The position numbers and the translations under genes are program-made. DNA of 28,692 nt from a virus. Lineage: Duplodnaviria > Caudoviricetes. Of the stretch, positions 9,850 to 17,934 are shown in pieces; the stretch's first letter is position 1; each line of letters starts with the position of its first letter. The notes beneath the pieces were generated by a model, which ran no database searches, was not told where the DNA came from, and saw nothing but the letters and a program-made list of their open reading frames with translations. The stretch covers positions 1 to 28,692 of IMG/VR virus record IMGVR_UViG_3300049472_000072. The stretch is one strand, 5' to 3'.

Positions 9850-10092
9850 ATGGCACGACCTATAAAAACAAAAGAGCAAAACGACTTAGACGCTAAGGCA
9901 TCGCAGGAACTTAAATATACCTTATCTAATATACAGGTAGGTGAACGGGCATTTATACCCCACATGTCAAAAAAGTTGGTGCAAAGGAAAGTATGCTACC
10001 ATAACAAAAAACAAGAGTCAAAAATAAAGTTTGATTATTGCAATGATAATAGGGACGGGGTTGTTGGTGTGGCGATATTGAGAATTGGGTAG
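9850..10092 (+). CDS. small basic protein, possibly DNA-binding
   Basis: First ORF after the rightward promoter; MARPIK start. Confidence 0.6.
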   Translation: MARPIKTKEQNDLDAKASQELKYTLSNIQVGERAFIPHMSKKLVQRKVCYHNKKQESKIKFDYCNDNRDGVVGVAILRIG

Positions 10093-10104: not shown

Positions 10105-10135
10105 GCACTGAACAGAGAAGTGTTTCTGTTGTGGG
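10105..10135 (+). repeat. short cassette junction site 1
   Basis: AACAGAGA-AGTG-TTTCTGTT mini-hairpin; 22 bp (10114-10135) identical to 11341-11362. Confidence 0.65.
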
Positions 10136-10286
10136 TTACAGTTCTTTTTCAATTGGTAAAATTATGAATAGACGATATAATGGATTCAATGATGGGCTTC
10201 ACGCTTCATCTGGCGTAGGTGGAGAAGACCCATATTGGGAGTTTGAAGAGCAACTTCTGGGCGGAGTTATAAAACCTAATGATATT

Positions 10287-10532
10287 ATGTCAAATCTAAA
10301 AATAGGGCGAATGGTGGAATTTTTCCCAAACAAAAACAAGGATGGGTTAAAGTTGCTTAACAGCATGGAAAGCGCACCGGCAATGATTGTGCAAATATTT
10401 AATGAGCATGTTAATTTGGTCGTTTTTACTGCCGATAATACAGGCGAAAATCCTGTAAAAAATGCGTGGAGCATTCGGCATAAAAACAAAGTACAAGGTG
10501 AGGGAGAGTCATATTGGGATTCAATTATTTAG
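10287..10532 (+). CDS. cassette gene, hypothetical phage protein
   Basis: IGRMVEFF...APAMIVQIF...VNLVVF; ATG follows a 25-bp leader shared with the gene at 11053 (alternative start 10164). Confidence 0.65.
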   Translation: MSNLKIGRMVEFFPNKNKDGLKLLNSMESAPAMIVQIFNEHVNLVVFTADNTGENPVKNAWSIRHKNKVQGEGESYWDSII

Positions 10533-10546
10533 CAAGTAAGCTGTAA

Positions 10547-10654
10547 TGTCATTGTTTGACGAATATTCCAAGGCGTTATCTTCAAATATCATATAATAGG
10601 CGGTTTGATAAAGAATCATTAGAAGAGATGAATTTTAGGATGCATCTCTCTTAA
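10547..10654 (+). pseudogene. 3' remnant of a deleted cassette gene
   Basis: 35 open codons with no 5' start, ending just before the inverse core TTGCTACTAAC. Confidence 0.45.
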
Positions 10655-10660
10655 ACTTGC

Positions 10661-10753
10661 TACTAACGGTTGGGTATATACGAAGTACCCGAATTAGAAG
10701 CTTAAAATTTAGTACAAACCTTAATAGGGTGTTTCGTATATACCTTGTCAGCA
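10661..10753 (+). repeat. attC-like site 2
   Basis: TACTAAC; arms GGTATATACGAAGTACCC and GGGTGTTTCGTATATACC (16/18); core GTCAGCA. Confidence 0.75.
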
Positions 10754-10765
10754 AATCGTTAAAAT

Positions 10766-10846
10766 ATGTGGATTAGAACAGTAAATGGAATTGAATGGAT
10801 AGAAGTTGAGCAAACAGCACAAGGATTGTGGATACCTAAACGGTAA
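10766..10846 (+). CDS. 26-aa microprotein cassette gene
   Basis: MWIRTVNGIEWIEVEQTAQGLWIPKR fills a cassette between sites 2 and 3. Confidence 0.55.
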   Translation: MWIRTVNGIEWIEVEQTAQGLWIPKR

Positions 10847-10860
10847 CATATTTTTATGTC

Positions 10861-10993
10861 TGCTAACGACACGTATTTGGGCTTGTGGTGGCTGAATGGA
10901 AACGTGGGTATCCACCGCCAAAAAAACTAACTAGAAATCAATAAACTAAGAATAACCAAGAACGCCACCACATGACTAAATACCGTGTTATGG
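10861..10993 (+). repeat. attC-like site 3
   Basis: TGCTAAC; arms 10873-10892 and 10964-10983 (17/20); core GTTATGG at 10987. Confidence 0.8.
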
Positions 10994-11052
10994 GCTGCCG
11001 TTTTTGTTCACCGATAAACTTCTGGGCGGAGTTATAAAACCCATTTATAATT

Positions 11053-11295
11053 ATGGATTTCATGGGCAAAAAAGCAAAAGACAAGATCACTGGTTTTGAA
11101 GGTATTATTACTTCAAAACATATTTATTTAACTGGATGTAATCAATATGGAATTCAGCCATCAGTCGATAAAGATGGGAAAGTCCCTGAAAAAAACTACT
11201 TTGATGAAGGAAGAATAGAAATAACTGGGGAAGGTATTTCTTCAAAAAGTGTCACCGCTGAACAAAATGGATGTGACCAAAGAGAACATCCATAA
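11053..11295 (+). CDS. cassette gene, small SH3-like phage protein
   Basis: GKKAKDKITGFEGIIT..HIYLTGCNQYGIQP...DG...YFDEGRI. Confidence 0.75.
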   Translation: MDFMGKKAKDKITGFEGIITSKHIYLTGCNQYGIQPSVDKDGKVPEKNYFDEGRIEITGEGISSKSVTAEQNGCDQREHP

Positions 11296-11327
11296 TTGAG
11301 TAAACTTGGCGACTGTTATGATTTCTA

Positions 11328-11422
11328 CGGTTGCCCATAAAGAGAAGTGTTTCTGTTGTGGGCTTCTTTGGACTTCAAAATCGGGAAAGTGTTTCGCCCA
11401 TAACTGAAACACAATGTTATAT
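11328..11422 (+). repeat. short sites 4 and 5 bracketing an ORF-less mini-cassette
   Basis: GCCCATAA-14 nt-GTTGTGGGC ... GCCCATAAC-11 nt-GTTATATG. Confidence 0.6.
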
Positions 11423-11437
11423 GAAAACCTTTCTTTT

Positions 11438-11725
11438 ATGAATACATTAACCCATTCAGATTTTAATAAAAAAGAAATATATTTTGTCATAATACCTCGT
11501 CCTTGGCTTCAAGGTAACCCGATTGGTTTCGGAGCAGTCGAACCAGACAAAGAATATAAACGTGGCATCACATGGGTTGCTGATGTTATAACAAGAACAG
11601 ATTTGTCGGCATGGTCTGGATTTACGATAAAACAATTTGGTGATGATTTAGGTCATTATCAATTTAAAACATACGATAATTGCTTTGATAAGTTATGTGA
11701 TGAATTTAAGCATTTGCTCGTTTAA
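11438..11725 (+). CDS. cassette gene, hypothetical
   Basis: ATG at 11438 lies inside the cassette; the stop overlaps the inverse core AAGGTTTCATATAAC. Confidence 0.7.
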   Translation: MNTLTHSDFNKKEIYFVIIPRPWLQGNPIGFGAVEPDKEYKRGITWVADVITRTDLSAWSGFTIKQFGDDLGHYQFKTYDNCFDKLCDEFKHLLV

Positions 11726-11731
11726 GGTTTC

Positions 11732-11863
11732 ATATAACGCTAGGTGTTCAAGCTTTTTTCGGGATTAACGGAGACGTAGGTCTCCACCGATGGGAACTGA
11801 ACTTGTGCAAAAAAAACACGAGTTGCCTCTAAAGCCCGAAAATGATTGAACACAGTGTTAGGC
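11732..11863 (+). repeat. attC-like site 6
   Basis: ATATAAC; arms 11744-11763 and 11835-11853; core GTTAGGC at 11857. Confidence 0.8.
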
Positions 11864-11911
11864 GCAAAGTTTTCTTTTAATTAGTAACCAATTAAATTAA
11901 TTTATAATACA

Positions 11912-12106
11912 ATGAAACTAAAAAATCTTTTGTGGCTATTATTAGCCTTTTCAGTTAGTAATTATTTCGCTTGGATGATTGGCTCGTTTGTTGAAATTAA
12001 ATCTACTTTGCTGTGGTGCTTTGCACTTACCTGCATAGGAAGCGCACTCTTTTCAGTGCTTGGATTTATTTCAAATGATTCTAATAATTTAAACAAAGTA
12101 ATTTAA
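11912..12106 (+). CDS. cassette gene, two-TM membrane protein
   Basis: Two hydrophobic helices in 64 aa. Confidence 0.7.
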   Translation: MKLKNLLWLLLAFSVSNYFAWMIGSFVEIKSTLLWCFALTCIGSALFSVLGFISNDSNNLNKVI

Positions 12107-12148
12107 TTGTGTAATGTTTTTATCTAAGGTGCACATATTTAAACTTGC

Positions 12149-12279
12149 GCCTAACGAAGACGGCTTTGTATTGTGCAAGGCTGAACCGCCAAAACGTATA
12201 AATAATGGAAAATGTATCTGATATGTGTGAAGCTCAAATAACCAGTAAACCCTTGCATAATTCAAAGCTTGTGTTATGC
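12149..12279 (+). repeat. attC-like site 7
   Basis: GCCTAAC; arms 12163-12180 and 12251-12268 (16/18); core GTTATGC at 12273. Confidence 0.82.
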
Positions 12280-12310
12280 GATGCCTTTCTTTCTTTTTTT
12301 TAGGTTTTTA

Positions 12311-12341
12311 TTTGGTGGTGTGTAATTTGTGTGTATATTTG
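12311..12341 (+). promoter_or_regulatory. cassette-internal promoter with operator repeats
   Basis: TTTG-19 nt-TATATTTG; GTGTGTA direct repeats at 12318 and 12329. Confidence 0.75.
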
Positions 12342-12352
12342 CACCATACAAT

Positions 12353-12502
12353 ATGAGACGATTTAATTTCTTCATTGAGCAACAGTGGATTGACAGAATA
12401 AAAAGAGACATGAATAAACATGGATTTACTTCTGTGTCTAGTTTTATTCGATTCATTATCATTAAGTTCTTTGATAAAAATATTGACAGTAGCAATAAGT
12501 GA
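12353..12502 (+). CDS. ribbon-helix-helix (CopG/Arc-like) regulator, 49 aa
   Basis: Read by hand: MRRFNFFIEQQWIDRIKRDMNKHGFTSVSSFIRFIIIKFFDKNIDSSNK; strand-helix-G..S.S.FIR pattern. Confidence 0.7.
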   Translation: MRRFNFFIEQQWIDRIKRDMNKHGFTSVSSFIRFIIIKFFDKNIDSSNK

Positions 12503-12619
12503 GATACTTCAACCAATCCGTGTGTCGCAGGTTCGAGTCCTGTCATAACTGTAAAAGGTTGTGTAGCTCAGCTGGTAGAGTAACTGACTAAAAAGACTCT
12601 CTTAGATTTTCTCTGTCAA
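12483..12619 (+). ncRNA. yrlA: Y RNA, YrlA-type tRNA mimic
   Basis: Terminal stem TTGACAG/CTGTCAA; T arm GCAGGTTCGAGTCCTGT precedes a closed acceptor stem and D arm TAGCTCAGCTGGTAGAG; lies upstream of the TROVE gene. Confidence 0.85.
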
Positions 12620-12624
12620 CTTTA

Positions 12625-12690
12625 TTGAAAGTGGCGATTGCAGTGTTACTTCTTTTGGTGAAAAACACACTCCAAACTTTACCCTTTCAA
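12625..12690 (+). ncRNA. short Y RNA 2
   Basis: Stem TTGAAAG/CTTTCAA with the same AGTRGCRA 5' motif and pyrimidine-rich 3' strand. Confidence 0.7.
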
Positions 12691-12694
12691 GTTA

Positions 12695-12763
12695 TTGGAA
12701 AGTAGCGACTGAAAAGCGTTCACCTGCTAACTGAAACCGCTTACCAGAGTTTTCTCTTTCCAA
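12695..12763 (+). ncRNA. short Y RNA 3
   Basis: Stem TTGGAAAG/CTTTCCAA, AGTAGCGA motif, TTTTCTCT 3' strand. Confidence 0.7.
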
Positions 12764-12771
12764 CACTTGCA

Positions 12772-12807
12772 AGGGTACATTCCAGAAATGGGGTGTACCT
12801 TTTTTTT
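12772..12807 (+). terminator. intrinsic terminator between the Y RNAs and rsr
   Basis: GGTACATTCC-loop-GGGGTGTACC followed by T8. Confidence 0.8.
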
Positions 12808-12833
12808 ATTGAAACAATTTTAAACAAATAACT

Positions 12834-14279
12834 ATGTCAAGATTCAACACAACATCAGAAGGAACTAAAACCGTAAATTTAGCAGGTGGCGAAGCTTTCA
12901 AGCAAACGCCAGAATTGGAATTGATTTCAATTCTTTTAACCTCATTTGCAAATGATAGCTTTTATCGTTCATCAAACGACACGTTTGAGCGACTAAAAGA
13001 ACTAGTAAGGATTTGCGATAAGCGATTTGTGGCACAAGCTGCCGTATATGCCAGAACACATTTTGGGATGCGTTCAATAACACATTGCGTGGCTTCTGAA
13101 CTTGCAAAGCATATATCAGGTGAGGCATGGGCAAAAGACTTCTATTCGGCTGTAATTTACCGACCTGACGATATGTTAGAAATATTGTCTTATCATTCAT
13201 CAAGAAATGGGAAAATCCCTAATTCAATGAAAAAAGGGCTTGCAAAAGCTTTTGACAAATTCGATGCGTATTCATTGGCTAAATATAGAGGCGAAGGCAA
13301 AGGGTTCAAACTAATTGACGTTGTGAACTTGGTACACCCAATTCCGACCGAAAAGAATTCAGAAGCAATAAACGCCCTTGTGAAAGGTGAATTGAAATCG
13401 TTTGACACATGGGAGGTAGAGCTTTCAAAAGCAGGACAAACGGCAACTAGCGAGGAAGAAAAAGCAGACTTCAAAAAAGAAGTTTGGATCAAACTTATTC
13501 GTGAGAAAAAGCTTGGCTATTTTGCTTTGTTGAAAAACCTAAGAAACATCATAGAGCAAGCCCCAGAAGTGATAAATGATGCAATCGCAACATTAACAAA
13601 TGAAGCTTTGATTAAAAAATCGCTTGTATTGCCTTTTCGATATTTGACAGCATTTGAAGAAGTTCAAAAATTAAATGATGGAAAAATTGTAAGAGAAGTA
13701 TTGATGGCACTAAATAAAGCCGTTGATACTGCAATAAACAATGTGCCAAAATTTGATGGTGAAACATTAGTGGTATTGGATGTTTCTGGTTCAATGAACG
13801 AATCACACATGGGGACAAAATCGCCCCATGTGATTGGTGCTTTATTTTCGGCTGTTCTAGTAAAATCTAACAATGCTGATTTTATGGTATTTTCTGATAC
13901 TGCAAAATACCACAACATCAACCCAATGGATTCAACCATAACGATTGCTAATTCTTTGCGTTTTGCAGCAGGTGAAACAAATTTTCATTCCATATTTCAA
14001 ACTGCAAATAAGAAGTATAATAGGATCATAATTCTTTCTGACATGCAAGGATGGATTGGAGGATATTCGCCAACTAGGGAGTTTTCTGAGTACAAAAAAA
14101 CAACCGAATCAAATCCATTTGTTTACTCATTTGATTTGAAAAATTACGGAACGATGCAATTTCCAGAAAGAAACGTTTTTGCATTGGCTGGATTTTCAGA
14201 AAAGGTTTTTGATACTATGAAAATGATGGAGGAAGACAAGAATTCTTTAGTGAATGAAATTAAAAAGGTCGTGTTTTAA
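12834..14279 (+). CDS. rsr: Ro60/Rsr TROVE-vWA RNA-binding protein
   Basis: N-terminal NLAGGEAF; TROVE motifs (YAR...MRS, YSLAKY, DVVNLVHP, TWE, ALLKNLRN, LPFRY); MIDAS DVSGSM, T, SDMQ. Confidence 0.95.
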   Translation: MSRFNTTSEGTKTVNLAGGEAFKQTPELELISILLTSFANDSFYRSSNDTFERLKELVRICDKRFVAQAAVYARTHFGMRSITHCVASELAKHISGEAWAKDFYSAVIYRPDDMLEILSYHSSRNGKIPNSMKKGLAKAFDKFDAYSLAKYRGEGKGFKLIDVVNLVHPIPTEKNSEAINALVKGELKSFDTWEVELSKAGQTATSEEEKADFKKEVWIKLIREKKLGYFALLKNLRNIIEQAPEVINDAIATLTNEALIKKSLVLPFRYLTAFEEVQKLNDGKIVREVLMALNKAVDTAINNVPKFDGETLVVLDVSGSMNESHMGTKSPHVIGALFSAVLVKSNNADFMVFSDTAKYHNINPMDSTITIANSLRFAAGETNFHSIFQTANKKYNRIIILSDMQGWIGGYSPTREFSEYKKTTESNPFVYSFDLKNYGTMQFPERNVFALAGFSEKVFDTMKMMEEDKNSLVNEIKKVVF

Positions 14280-14300
14280 CGCATGGCCTTTTAAGGTATC

Positions 14301-14388
14301 GCATAACGTAAATATAAATGAAGCTGGCATTTGTGAAGCCTAAAGGTAGGTGTGAACTTGCGCCAGTTTCTTTTATATAGTGTTATCA
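14301..14388 (+). repeat. attC-like site 8
   Basis: GCATAAC; arms 14312-14328 and 14362-14378 (15/17); core GTTATCA at 14382. Confidence 0.8.
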
Positions 14389-14406
14389 GAATTATTTTTT
14401 GTCCGC

Positions 14407-14444
14407 TTGTTTTGTAATGATTATGTAATTACATTTGCATTACA
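14407..14444 (+). promoter_or_regulatory. cassette promoter overlapped by a palindromic operator
   Basis: TACATTTG at 14430-14437 within TGTAAT-N5-TGTAATTACA-N5-ATTACA. Confidence 0.65.
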
Positions 14445-14460
14445 TTTAAACAATAAATAG

Positions 14461-15552
14461 ATGCAAGTACAAGTAATTACATTACCAGTAGAAGTAAGCG
14501 AATTAGCGATTAAAGTTTCGGCTAATAAGCAAGAAGAAGTTAAAAACGTATTGCAACAAATTTTTACAGGAACAGATGACTGGGAAAAACAAGTAGATGC
14601 AATTGAGGTAAAAGACATTAACGACAAAATGAGTATTGAACTTGCAGAAGTAGCAAGGAAAAACTCAAAAACAGCTAGATTGAATGCTGAAAAAATATTT
14701 GATGCAAAACGTGAAGAAGTTCAAAACCTAAAGGCAGAATTTGATTTAGAAGACAAACTTTGGTTAAAGGCAAAACAGGTAATGCAATTGAAATTCAAAG
14801 CAATTGAAGAAAAAGCAGAATGGAAGGCAAATTTTGTAAAGCGTTTTGAAGCTGAACAAAAAGAACTAAGAACACAAAAAAGAATTAACGAAGTTTCAAA
14901 ATATGCTGAAATAAACCGCATAGAATTTGAAAATATGAGTGAGGATATTTTTGATAGTTTTTTAAGCGGATTAAAGGCTAATTATGAAGCCAAAATAGAA
15001 GCTGAAAAGAAAGCAGAAGCAGAACGCATTGAAGCTGCAAGATTAGAATCAGAACGCATTGAAAAGCAAAGAATAGAAAACGAGCGACTAAAAGCCGAAG
15101 CAGAAAAGAGAGAAAAAGAAATAGAAGCGGAACGCAAGGCAAACGAGCAAAAACTTGCAGAAGAAAGAGCAAAAGCAAAAGCCGAAGCTGATAGGATCGA
15201 AGCAGAAAATAAGGCTGAACAAGAAAAAATGAACGCCTTTTTAGCTGAACAAAAACGGAAAAGTGAGTTACAACTAGAAGAAGCTAGGAAGGAGAAAGAA
15301 AGACTTGAAAAAGAAATCCAAGCTAAAAAAGATGCTGAATTAAAAGCGGAAAACGAACGCAAGGAAGCTGAACTAAAAGCAAAAGCCGAAGCAGAAAAGA
15401 ACGCTAAAGCCCCAATAAAACAAAGATTAAATGTTTGGGTAGATTCTTTTGAAATTAATAGAACTTTTGTTGAGCATGAGAAAGCAAAAGAAATAATTCA
15501 AAAGTTTGAAGCATTTAAAAAATGGGCTAAAACAGAAATTGAATCTATTTAG
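14461..15552 (+). CDS. cassette gene, long charged coiled-coil protein
   Basis: 363 aa, E/K/A/R-rich helical repeats. Confidence 0.85.
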   Translation: MQVQVITLPVEVSELAIKVSANKQEEVKNVLQQIFTGTDDWEKQVDAIEVKDINDKMSIELAEVARKNSKTARLNAEKIFDAKREEVQNLKAEFDLEDKLWLKAKQVMQLKFKAIEEKAEWKANFVKRFEAEQKELRTQKRINEVSKYAEINRIEFENMSEDIFDSFLSGLKANYEAKIEAEKKAEAERIEAARLESERIEKQRIENERLKAEAEKREKEIEAERKANEQKLAEERAKAKAEADRIEAENKAEQEKMNAFLAEQKRKSELQLEEARKEKERLEKEIQAKKDAELKAENERKEAELKAKAEAEKNAKAPIKQRLNVWVDSFEINRTFVEHEKAKEIIQKFEAFKKWAKTEIESI

Positions 15553-15553
15553 T

Positions 15554-15715
15554 ATGGCTAAGAAAAAACACGATAGGCAATTATCTAAGCGTTTTAACGG
15601 TAGTGATATTGATAAGTGGCAAGAACTAGCCAATAAAGAAACAGGTGGGAATCTCACTTTGTTTATTGAGTTGACCATAAATAAGGCTGTTGAACGTGCC
15701 AATAAGCCCTCTTAA
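15554..15715 (+). CDS. RHH-like small regulator (53 aa)
   Basis: RQLSKRF...IDKWQELANKETGGNLTLFIELTINK; stop abuts the inverse core AATATTTCTGATAAC. Confidence 0.6.
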   Translation: MAKKKHDRQLSKRFNGSDIDKWQELANKETGGNLTLFIELTINKAVERANKPS

Positions 15716-15721
15716 TATTTC

Positions 15722-15786
15722 TGATAACAATTGTGCTTGTCTAACTTGATTTACCAAATCGCTGTTATTAGCTTGTATTGTTAGTA
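15722..15786 (+). repeat. terminal, degenerate attC-like site 9
   Basis: TGATAAC followed by a weak hairpin (GATTT/AAATC) and GTT at 15764 or 15780. Confidence 0.5.
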
Positions 15787-15806
15787 TATTATGGTATATT
15801 TGTACT

Positions 15807-16055
15807 ATGAATAGTAAGTGGATTTTCACAAACGAGAAGTTGCAAGAGTACGTTATTGGGAGCGATAAAAAGGTTTACAAAAAGCCTTTCGTCTCCCACA
15901 AGCGTTACTTTGGCTATAGGGAGGTAAAAATGCAATATCCAGAAAGGTATCGCTTGAATGGTCAATGGTGGTCTAAGGCTCAACTAAAACAGCATATTGC
16001 ATTGAACCCAAACCCAGAGATTATTTTTGAGAATGGGAAAGATACCCCTTGGTAG
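15807..16055 (+). CDS. hypothetical basic protein with its own promoter
   Basis: TATATTTG at 15795-15802 just upstream of the ATG. Confidence 0.65.
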   Translation: MNSKWIFTNEKLQEYVIGSDKKVYKKPFVSHKRYFGYREVKMQYPERYRLNGQWWSKAQLKQHIALNPNPEIIFENGKDTPW

Positions 16056-16895: not shown

Positions 16896-17423
16896 ATGGA
16901 AAATATATCAGATACTAAATATTGTAAGTATTGCGAATCTGATAAACCTATCGTGCGCTTTAGAATAAGATTTGACAAGAGAAGGGAGCCTCCACTTGAA
17001 TATCTCAATAATAAATGCAAAGACTGTGATGCCGAATACACAAGACAAAGGCACTACTCATTAAAAGACGACCCAGAATATAAGAAGAAAAACAGCAAGC
17101 GTTCTTCTGAATATGCTAAAAGGACTGGGAAATCAAAAGCAAGATGGCAAAAAGAAAATGATGACCCAAAAAGAATAAATGCACTAAAAGAATGGAGAGA
17201 AAATAATAGATGGCGTGTTTCTGAATTGCACAAAATAGCAGTTGGTAAGTACCACACGTATAATATGTCAAATATGACAGACGTATATATTGCTAGAAAA
17301 ATAAAAGACCAATTCCCTTGGATGGAAAGGGTTGATATTTTGAGAGACAAAGAATTGATGGATTTAAAAAGAGCGGAAATTTTAATTTACAGATTAAACA
17401 AACATAGCAATGGCAAAAAATAG
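16896..17423 (+). CDS. Zn-finger (CxxC..CxxC) basic protein
   Basis: CKYC...CKDC N-terminus, as seen in phage endonuclease-associated Zn ribbons. Confidence 0.75.
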   Translation: MENISDTKYCKYCESDKPIVRFRIRFDKRREPPLEYLNNKCKDCDAEYTRQRHYSLKDDPEYKKKNSKRSSEYAKRTGKSKARWQKENDDPKRINALKEWRENNRWRVSELHKIAVGKYHTYNMSNMTDVYIARKIKDQFPWMERVDILRDKELMDLKRAEILIYRLNKHSNGKK

Positions 17424-17934
17424 ACTTACTGAATTAAACGAAATACTTTTCAACCAACTCCATTCTTTGATAGAAAAAGGTGATAAGGAAATCGAAAAAA
17501 GCAGAGCAGTCGCAGGACTGGCAAAAGAGATAGTAAACTCCCACAAGCTTGTATTGGACGCTTCGAAGTTCGCAGTAAACCACGGGTTTATCATTTCAAA
17601 TACTGGTCAACAATCTACCATATTAGACCAGTTTGGGATATACAAAAACCATTCAAGTTTAGCAGAATCTACTAAACCAATAATAAAAGAACCCGAACAA
17701 TCAAATACGTTTGGCTATAAAAATACATGGGTGCCATCTCAGAAAGTAAAGTATATTTTAGCTAGTGGCGGTCTTGGTCTTTTAGCTATCCGTAACAACA
17801 TCGAAATGTTAGATAGCACATGGAGTATGTCCGACATTGAACTTGAAATATTACTCGAAGAAATGATTGATAATGGCGAGGTCAAGAAGGAAATAAAGAA
17901 AGATAGAAGTTTCTATTCCTTAGCATTTCTGTAA
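17410..17934 (+). CDS. phage protein with helical N-terminal domain and wHTH-like C-terminus
   Basis: NRLTELNEILFNQL...EIEKSRAVAGLAKEIVN; C-terminal LEEMIDNGEV..RSFYSL. Confidence 0.7.
   Translation: MAKNRLTELNEILFNQLHSLIEKGDKEIEKSRAVAGLAKEIVNSHKLVLDASKFAVNHGFIISNTGQQSTILDQFGIYKNHSSLAESTKPIIKEPEQSNTFGYKNTWVPSQKVKYILASGGLGLLAIRNNIEMLDSTWSMSDIELEILLEEMIDNGEVKKEIKKDRSFYSLAFL

Follow-up and report, generated by a model that had tools for sequence, protein, structure and literature searches.

The window analysed here is a whole viral contig of 28,692 bp (IMG/VR record IMGVR_UViG_3300049472_000072), a partial genome of a freshwater phage whose genes, by Pfam and PHROG profile searches, include a portal, an endolysin, Erf and a YqaJ-like exonuclease. 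Flanked by minus-strand early genes and by late genes lies a block of plus-strand genes (10105–15786), in which six hairpin sites, S1–S6, each of the form TAAC-arm...arm-GTT, part co-oriented genes, and the two ends of each unit are complementary. The initial annotation had read this block as an array of integron-like cassettes recombining at G/TT; the nature of that array, and the point at which its units break, are the subject of this report. TAnnTTTG motifs, which we take to be the Bacteroidota promoter element, stand closely 5' of the ATGs at 9850, 12353, 14461 and 15807, and the host is therefore presumably a member of the Bacteroidota.

All features of the array lie on the plus strand; units are described as a hairpin followed by what lies downstream of it, and bit scores are those of the covariance model introduced below. 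At the left end, remnant S0 (10111–10135), an AAC and then 22 nt that repeat the S3 left arm exactly, lacks a right arm and gives no model match. The decayed first unit (10164–10667) carries a 122-aa open reading frame (ORF; 10164–10532) and closes at the TAAC of S1; no GTT start matching that end was found. S1 (10664–10750, 39.6 bits) is a site of short form that reads GTC instead of GTT at 10747–10749, and unit 2 (10667–10866) consists of its hairpin and a degenerate 121-bp body (10747–10867) with a 26-aa ORF only. S2 (10864–10990; 123 nt from TAAC to GTT, 33.8 bits, fold z −3.7) opens unit 3 (10867–11340), whose 80-aa phage gene (11053–11295) belongs to PHROG 16275, of function not known. 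S3 (11338–11419, 23.7 bits) reads TAAA, having lost the C of AAC, and heads unit 4 (11341–11737), which holds a 103-aa ORF (11414–11725) of no Pfam or PHROG family. S4 (11735–11860, 122 nt) has both the lowest model score (17.7 bits) and the most stable fold (z −5.0), and precedes a hydrophobic 64-aa ORF (11912–12106) in unit 5 (11738–12154). S5 (12152–12276; 121 nt, 44.3 bits), a hairpin whose family is found between other flanks in four of four lake runs, leads unit 6 (12155–14306), with a TAnnTTTG motif at 12334, a 49-aa ORF (12353–12502), a YrlA-like RNA (12497–12606) and a Ro60/Rsr gene (12834–14279). S6 (14304–14385, 37.4 bits), again of short form, is followed in unit 7 (14307–15727) by a promoter-like motif at 14430, a 363-aa coiled-coil-like gene (14461–15552) and a 53-aa ORF (15554–15715). 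The array end (15725–15783) comprises a final TAAC and a weak hairpin, and an 82-aa ORF (15807–16055) comes next. For both damaged cores, GTT to GTC in S1 and AAC to AAA in S3, intact forms occur in related contigs. Two short direct repeats, 10252–10284/11017–11049 (decayed first unit and start of unit 3) and 10114–10135/11341–11362 (the same unit and the S3 left arm), suggest an earlier duplication or illegitimate rearrangement.

The array is real. The initial annotation had paired the start of each of five units with the unit's own end, at 10987/11328, 11416/11724, 11857/12141, 12273/14293 and 14382/15714, and all five pairs were located there. The first (10987/11328–11341) has two internal mismatches and is without the C of AAC, pairs 2 and 3 need a one-base gap, and pairs 4 and 5 match at 14 of 15 positions; the sixth site (10664–10750) and its gene-less 121-bp unit (10747–10867) had been overlooked. 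Pairs of GTT and AAC ends matching at 13 or more of 16 positions number seven between 10100 and 15800, only four of them among those five, against 1.9 ± 1.3 (maximum 6) in 100 first-order Markov resamples, a modest excess. A covariance-model scan, which had been proposed as a check, was made with a model of 50 dissimilar sites, viral and bacterial, taken from other loci and picked by a hairpin detector, with sites matching the left half of the search pattern left out. This model, built from the sites of other genomes, matches all six window sites on the plus strand (17.7–44.3 bits, E 1.4e-8 to 0.043), and no other plus-strand match below E 0.6 was found in the 28.7 kb. A minus-strand match at 15725–15855 (17.7 bits) was set aside as chance, having a broken stem and running into the 82-aa ORF. 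The start arm pairs with the end of its own unit, not with the adjacent upstream end, as had been claimed for the long sites of the window: at least 8 of 10 positions pair in 142 of 208 viral units, versus 4 for the upstream end. Folding z-scores of S1–S6 range from −1.8 to −5.0. The hairpins are indeed unrelated in sequence to one another, but the families of S1, S3 and S5 each recur in other contigs; every ORF within the units lies on the plus strand. An Rfam scan of the window gave no attC-type match, and blastn of the array against cultured phages matched cargo genes and tRNA-like sequence only. Close relatives of the phage were sought through the 82-aa and 80-aa ORFs, which gave no viral loci, and with a 97-aa query, which gave one weak locus.

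To define the family to which these sites belong, its anatomy was compared across viral and bacterial loci. In the 50 aligned sites, 91% of inner-arm cells are paired, with 296 double changes, while slid controls gave 33–50%; the inner arm is under structural selection. One G.T wobble is invariant in 50/50 sites even though the detector penalised G.T, and AAC and GTT are likewise invariant, both having been required by the detector. The span from TAAC to GTT is 115–129 nt in 253/346 viral and 251/298 bacterial sites, a value partly fixed by the search pattern. Spacers are asymmetric, about 8/4, with left minus right equal to 4 nt in 260/346 viral and 263/298 bacterial sites, again partly set by the pattern; the asymmetry is 1–3 nt in the four window sites scored by the detector. 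The arms are colinear over 19 columns with fixed mismatches, extrahelical bases are absent from the consensus, and the window arms align without gaps except in S4. A C.A mismatch at inner position 3 is a product of the search pattern and was not used as evidence. The outer arm, formed by the two ends of a unit, was profiled in units with well-paired ends (164/208 viral, 127/159 bacterial). It is 15 bp long: in the viral units positions 12–15 pair in 72–93% and position 16 falls to 12%. Position 11 is Watson-Crick paired in 0% of the 164 viral units (0–1% overall) and is G.T in 82% of viral and bacterial units alike. The inner G.T also lies at position 11 from the core, so the circular form of a unit would have two pseudo-symmetric arms. 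Units 3–7 of the window have a mismatch or an extra base at outer-arm position 10–11. Several viral sites have long loops of 180–215 nt (loci L052–L193).

Classical attC sites, as defined in PMC5027507, have a central spacer of 5–6 nt per arm, two or three extrahelical bases, and the halves RYYYAAC and GTTRRRY. Those halves are met in only 48 and 58, respectively, of 828 family site calls, and each in one of the six window sites. The earlier suggestion that the family is distinct from classical attC is thereby upheld, as spacers, colinear stems and consensus halves all differ.

For a more direct view of where units break, joints in other contigs were examined. The permuted end-pairing fits both candidate boundaries and therefore cannot separate G/TT from AA/C. 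Assembled contigs from five runs (X1–X5) were compared with the window; X1 is possibly its source and so not independent, and X2–X5, which contain small shares, were used for boundaries and not for habitat. An independent X4 contig (record 19) is an exact match to the window over 14304–15728, starting with the TAAC of S6 and stopping with the final one, and has no match further out; it contains hairpin S6 and the genes downstream. This hairpin-plus-gene unit, 14304–15728, stands there beside different neighbours, in agreement with the proposal that the cassettes are mobile. A second X4 contig (record 15) matches 11295–11340 and diverges right past the TAA of unit 3, continuing with C and then other sequence. 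Run X2 contains near-identical pieces of unit 6, including the right arm of S5 joined to the unit start, and a loose end at 10748 in S1; a related contig reads GTT at that site. In loci with homologues of the 363-aa gene, four different hairpins come after one and the same cassette end (L005, L006, L008 and L050), and in L005 and L015 the same hairpin stands ahead of the gene while the upstream ends differ.

Linkage of hairpins to their flanks was then scored over 326 distinct viral sites, with 100-nt flanks and hairpin identity at 85%; one locus, L264, was dropped from the counts since its palindrome had been called on both strands. Of 13 site pairs alike in the upstream 100 nt, none has a common hairpin (0/8 clusters); of 34 alike in the downstream 100 nt, 24 do (7/13 clusters), against a background of 0.6%. 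With 50-nt flanks the values are 0/25 and 28/53, the pairs not being independent. Members of one hairpin family also turn up where neither flank is shared (219 pairs), and this holds for the families of S1, S3 and S5 as well. On these sequence comparisons the frequent boundary is best placed at AA/C on the gene strand, the GTT side being the minor one, and a hairpin moves together with its downstream gene. G/TT on the plus strand, proposed earlier as the crossover point, is thus not favoured as the main boundary, though a minority of exchanges do occur at the GTT side. An AA/C boundary on the gene strand is the mirror of classical cassettes. Two further ideas were tried and rejected: a hairpin swap by second-strand exchange at the inner box, because swapped pairs mostly do not keep the 4-nt spacer, and a choice of strand from folding energy, which is too weak to decide. 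The TAAA at S3 likely prevents the main crossover there, leaving units 3 and 4 fused; with an AAA variant the bottom strand of attI is inactive, according to a figure legend in PMC4792948.

The family is spread widely in Bacteroidota and their phages. One sub-pattern alone retrieved 143 viral stretches, for an estimated total of about 910, and 141 genome stretches, for an estimated total of about 3000; among the 77 genome loci listed, five carry a label outside Bacteroidota and one belongs to Ignavibacteriaceae. Five genomes, chosen for holding a hit, gave 17 to 150 model matches. One very large host array occupies about 3,476,000–3,982,500 of a Bacteroidota chromosome (G003:C1). It has 150 sites or more within about 0.5 Mb, the listed sites all of one polarity, and a convergent 368-aa tyrosine recombinase lies 3.3 kb from its end; it is of superintegron scale. 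On an Empedobacter plasmid (L338, 2878–6279), lnu(H), an aminoglycoside phosphotransferase gene and catB lie between family sites, catB inverted and of phage-like polarity, and a Riemerella locus (L227) has a stretch matching ere(D) between family sites. A contig in a Saccharimonadales bin (L240), possibly a mis-binned phage, carries a phage-type array and a recombinase, and its best site matches S1 of the window.

Gene orientation differs between the two groups. Among 142 viral units, genes run with the site polarity in 79 and against it in 3, and 60 have no clear gene; among 105 bacterial units the corresponding numbers are 11, 72 and 22. Host cassettes are therefore classical in layout, and phage cassettes mirror them. 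Phage cassettes are not just host cassettes turned round: with the entire body inverted, position 11 would be A.C, yet it is G.T in 82% of both groups. Within 142 well-paired viral units, 51 are without an ORF of at least 60 aa (loci L052–L193).

We next consider the enzyme. No tyrosine recombinase is encoded on the contig (hmmsearch E ≤ 10; best tblastn E 0.63), which agrees with the absence of an integrase noted before and with the suggestion that any recombinase would be supplied from elsewhere, in trans. Arrays of related phages finish with a recognisable attI-like half-site and then a recombinase: at 7 of 44 viral array ends, a co-oriented tyrosine recombinase starts 41–53 bp past the last AAC, about 8 of the 44 possibly being missed hairpins and not true ends. 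Host arrays likewise end at such an enzyme. Ten array-adjacent enzymes match the XerA-like NF040815 best; with the IntI model TIGR02249 all ten remain below the cut-off of 265, at 136–216 bits in two pieces. The L060 enzyme, aligned with VchIntIA (2A3V), has 35 residues where VchIntIA has 83, making it about 48 shorter across the insertion region. By these alignments, the enzymes beside related arrays are assigned as Xer-like, without the IntI-specific insertion I2. Phage recombinases are 266–295 aa long and point away from the array; those of hosts (L231, L234, L242, L214, L333, L335) are 337–391 aa and point toward it, with an N-terminal extension in the four aligned. Where related phages carry the recombinase, the window carries the 82-aa ORF. 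The window end, which does not fit the end profile, is not supported as an attI half-site. With no recombinase on the contig, no recognisable attI and two damaged sites, the array looks orphaned, and it may be partly frozen, given the two damaged cores and the lack of a clear attI.

Starting from the observed site anatomy, the boundaries in other contigs, the mirror polarity in phages, and recombinases beside related arrays and none on this contig, we consider it probable that the array consists of mobile cassettes of an integron-like family of Bacteroidota, in hairpin-then-gene units bounded at AA/C. They were likely assembled by an Xer-like tyrosine recombinase acting on folded single-stranded DNA (ssDNA), and the array is likely an orphan here, needing an enzyme from a host or helper phage. 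The gene-sense strand would fold and be cut between A and C, as IntI does on the attC bottom strand. Excision would yield a circle, and in it the two ends of the unit would anneal as the 15-bp outer arm; this arm would mirror the inner one, with G.T at position 11 in both, and the two would be the binding sites of the Xer-type enzyme. Integration of such circles would take place where the array ends downstream, adjoining the recombinase gene. Now and then the other strand would be used, and a gene would leave together with the hairpin that follows it, so that hairpins are swapped with polarity unchanged and the same gene is sometimes found behind a different hairpin. Strand choice by IntI uses I2 and extrahelical bases, as described in PMC4792948, and for an enzyme and a site without these a less strict choice would therefore be expected. 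In the present phage, the host, a co-infecting phage or a gene off the contig would supply the enzyme.

Several observations weigh against this account. A contig of run X3 (record 12) spans 14381–15727, starting at a GTT, and has unit 7 behind another hairpin. Six of the 13 downstream clusters share no hairpin at 85%, about four of them plainly different, and one bacterial pair (L215/L276) keeps the upstream flank and hairpin with a changed downstream flank. The bacterial linkage test comprises just eight pairs, two from a false palindromic call, and is too small alone. The polarity strand folds better in 76/120 viral and 70/120 bacterial sites, a weak bias. Neither recombination, nor a circle, nor a joint across a unit was found in the contigs of the five runs, an absence that is uninformative in assembled contigs. 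With 37 of the 44 phage array ends lacking an adjacent recombinase, the link to the enzyme rests on adjacency. In the window itself, the array end scores −10 against the end profile, for which 33 of 35 left-out ends score above 0; two of the six sites have a damaged core; the sites score well under typical members, at 18–44 bits versus up to 116; and the inner G.T is present in only four of the six. The window sites are a divergent subtype of the family.

The arrangement first proposed, classical polarity with a gene followed by its hairpin and the main crossover at G/TT of the gene strand, is compatible with the permuted end-pairing, with the start of the X3 contig at the GTT at 14381, and with the four or so clusters and the bacterial pair that break at the GTT side. 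It predicts, however, that a gene keeps its downstream hairpin, which happens in none of the 13 viral pairs or of the 25 in the shorter-context test, and the X4 contig takes in the upstream hairpin and stops at the downstream AAC; we give this arrangement very little credence. No greater credence goes to an ordinary cluster of attC sites lacking integron-integrases (CALIN), that is, classical attC captured from a host integron and served by IntI. The AAC/GTT core and the size range are the same, and CALINs have been reported in virulent phages, including a Polaribacter phage, in the account given in PMC9892861. The spacers of about 8/4 and not 5–6/5–6 and the colinear mismatched stems in place of extrahelical bases (definitions as given in PMC5027507), the rarity of the RYYYAAC and GTTRRRY halves, adjacent enzymes without the insertion, the failure of a P12002L family site with IntI1 described in PMC9892861, and the phage-type cargo all speak against it.

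If the hairpins themselves were mobile, inserting between genes like repetitive extragenic palindromic (REP) elements or miniature inverted-repeat transposable elements (MITEs) with the genes as mere passengers, the recurrence of hairpin families with both flanks different (219 pairs; S1, S3, S5) and the 51/142 units without an ORF would be accounted for. That would leave unexplained the 15-bp complementarity of a unit's own ends with its fixed mismatch (142 versus 4 of 208), the whole units in new contexts and the recombinase fixed at one end, and we regard it as very unlikely. The faintest chance goes to the hairpins acting in RNA, as processing sites or terminators, and having turned into hotspots of homologous recombination by phage enzymes such as Erf/YqaJ. 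The contig does encode Erf and a YqaJ-like exonuclease, the G.T pairs lie on the transcribed strand, and the short duplications at S0 and 10252/11017 resemble illegitimate events. Bacterial sites, though, oppose the gene strand in 72/83 units, so that site polarity does not follow transcription, and boundaries base-precise at a 4-nt core would be too short for annealing-based recombination.

Among the cargo, unit 6 stands out. The RNA at 12497–12606 matches Rfam YrlA (RF02553) over its full length with 40.1 bits (E 2.5e-6), under the gathering score of 69, and lies 230 bp upstream of the Ro60/Rsr gene, which has TROVE and vWA_Ro60 domains. A function of the Ro60/Rsr family in RNA quality control or repair is established, and by analogy the Ro60/Y RNA pair of unit 6 likely acts in the same way. 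Rsr/YrlA pairing is known in phages, from what PMC4201824 describes: the likeness is a Ro60 gene with an adjacent tRNA-like Y RNA, the difference its packaging here as a cassette. Of four other viral Rsr loci compared, none is in a cassette. The remaining cargo genes fall in no Pfam or PADLOC family and look like hypothetical genes of viruses; one weak Cas12k match (E 0.005) from PADLOC over ten ORFs was taken as chance. Two cargo proteins gave hypothetical viral clusters in the ESM Atlas and, in addition, one cluster in which 11% of members carry DUF1351. The 49-aa and 53-aa ORFs, with no profile match, resemble what we take to be ribbon-helix-helix regulators. The family of the 363-aa gene, with 16 long viral matches, is in a complete cassette in three, has a downstream site only in a fourth, and is unframed in 12; the outer arm of the window's frame differs, which suggests at least two independent framing events. 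Further along the window, at 16896–17934, two plus-strand genes (endonuclease-like PHROG 2340, and PHROG 2044) sit amid minus-strand late genes, both near a promoter-like stretch, and hairpin sites are absent there.

Compared with classical integrons (IntI, attI and attC, as in class 1 and Vibrio), the family is alike in its hairpin-bounded cassette arrays, its AAC/GTT core with crossover at AA/C of one strand, the tyrosine recombinase at one array end, which by site polarity points away from the array in phages, and its very large host arrays (G003). It differs in the recombinase without the IntI insertion, or on the window contig without any tyrosine recombinase, in the 8/4 spacers, in the 15-bp outer arm with G.T at 11, and in mismatches instead of extrahelical bases; the phage gene, moreover, follows its hairpin and points toward the insertion end. 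A classical promoterless cassette has its gene ahead of attC and is read from Pc, whereas units 6 and 7 carry promoter-like motifs. Integration of CTXphi by XerCD, a case of integrative mobile elements exploiting Xer (IMEX), likewise involves an Xer-type enzyme without I2 and a folded ssDNA stem without extrahelical bases, as presented in PMC4792948. In IMEX whole elements enter dif through host XerCD; here single-gene cassettes are arrayed beside a dedicated enzyme.

Phage CALINs were reported by Qi et al. 2023 (PMC9892861), whose account treats the sites as classical attC and counts few, and in which, of six phage sites tried, P12002L_attC1 alone failed to be integrated by IntI1. Polaribacter phage P12002L (NC_028924) has ten family sites called by the detector; like the window, it has these on the gene strand in the mirror layout, and no recombinase. 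The published attC1 is a family site at 30008–30056. The phage has two arrays, each closing with the same sequence of about 70 bp that starts exactly at AA/C (about 29170–29240 and 37195–37265), and the published attC2, which worked with IntI1, maps to this array-end sequence in the opposite reading direction, which accounts for the 'divergent' sites that PMC9892861 describes. In Riemerella anatipestifer, aph(3')-IVb inserted precisely and independently of homology, with 27 bp upstream and 140 bp downstream, the latter folding like attC, and lnu(H) is cited as a parallel case (both from the account in PMC13148043). A carriage of 140 bp is what would be expected of a host-polarity cassette with a 122-nt hairpin, and an R. 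anatipestifer genome has 41 model matches; the difference is that the account in PMC13148043 identifies neither recombinase nor array. The portions of PMC8138268 and PMC8618304 consulted add nothing on this hairpin-cassette family. A description of the family, its recombinase or its mirror polarity was not found in the literature searched, a search that left out most subscription journals, and within the texts consulted the published record is fragments only: the P12002L sites and the attC-like integration in Riemerella.

By the prevailing view an integron requires IntI, including the I2 domain, and attC sites with extrahelical bases. The array described here works like an integron yet fits neither definition, and is a partly decayed orphan copy. 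A bolder interpretation, which we put forward tentatively and think somewhat doubtful, is that these arrays form a second integron lineage of Bacteroidota and their phages, with an Xer-like enzyme without I2 and wobble-defined symmetric 15-bp arms, lying near the speculated phage-borne intermediate between Xer and IntI. Phages would then run a mirror-polarity cassette factory, framing ordinary phage genes repeatedly and reshuffling hairpins through both strands. If that is true, repeated framing (in the 363-aa family, 12/16 loci unframed and two unrelated frames) and two-strand reshuffling would make cassette genesis directly traceable.

Tools report almost no integrons in Bacteroidetes, the IntegronFinder 2.0 survey listing one complete integron; this family counts among its members a host array spanning about 0.5 Mb and cassettes for resistance, lnu(H) being one. 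The special value of the window lies in its exact boundary evidence for its own cassettes and in the Ro60/Y RNA cassette. Should the proposed mechanism hold, a large gene-shuffling system has been overlooked in a major phylum, and the precise Riemerella integrations and the single failed phage attC site would be explained. Phages would gain a modular accessory locus of their own, and the family would offer tractable material on the origin of IntI from Xer-like enzymes and on the genesis of cassettes.

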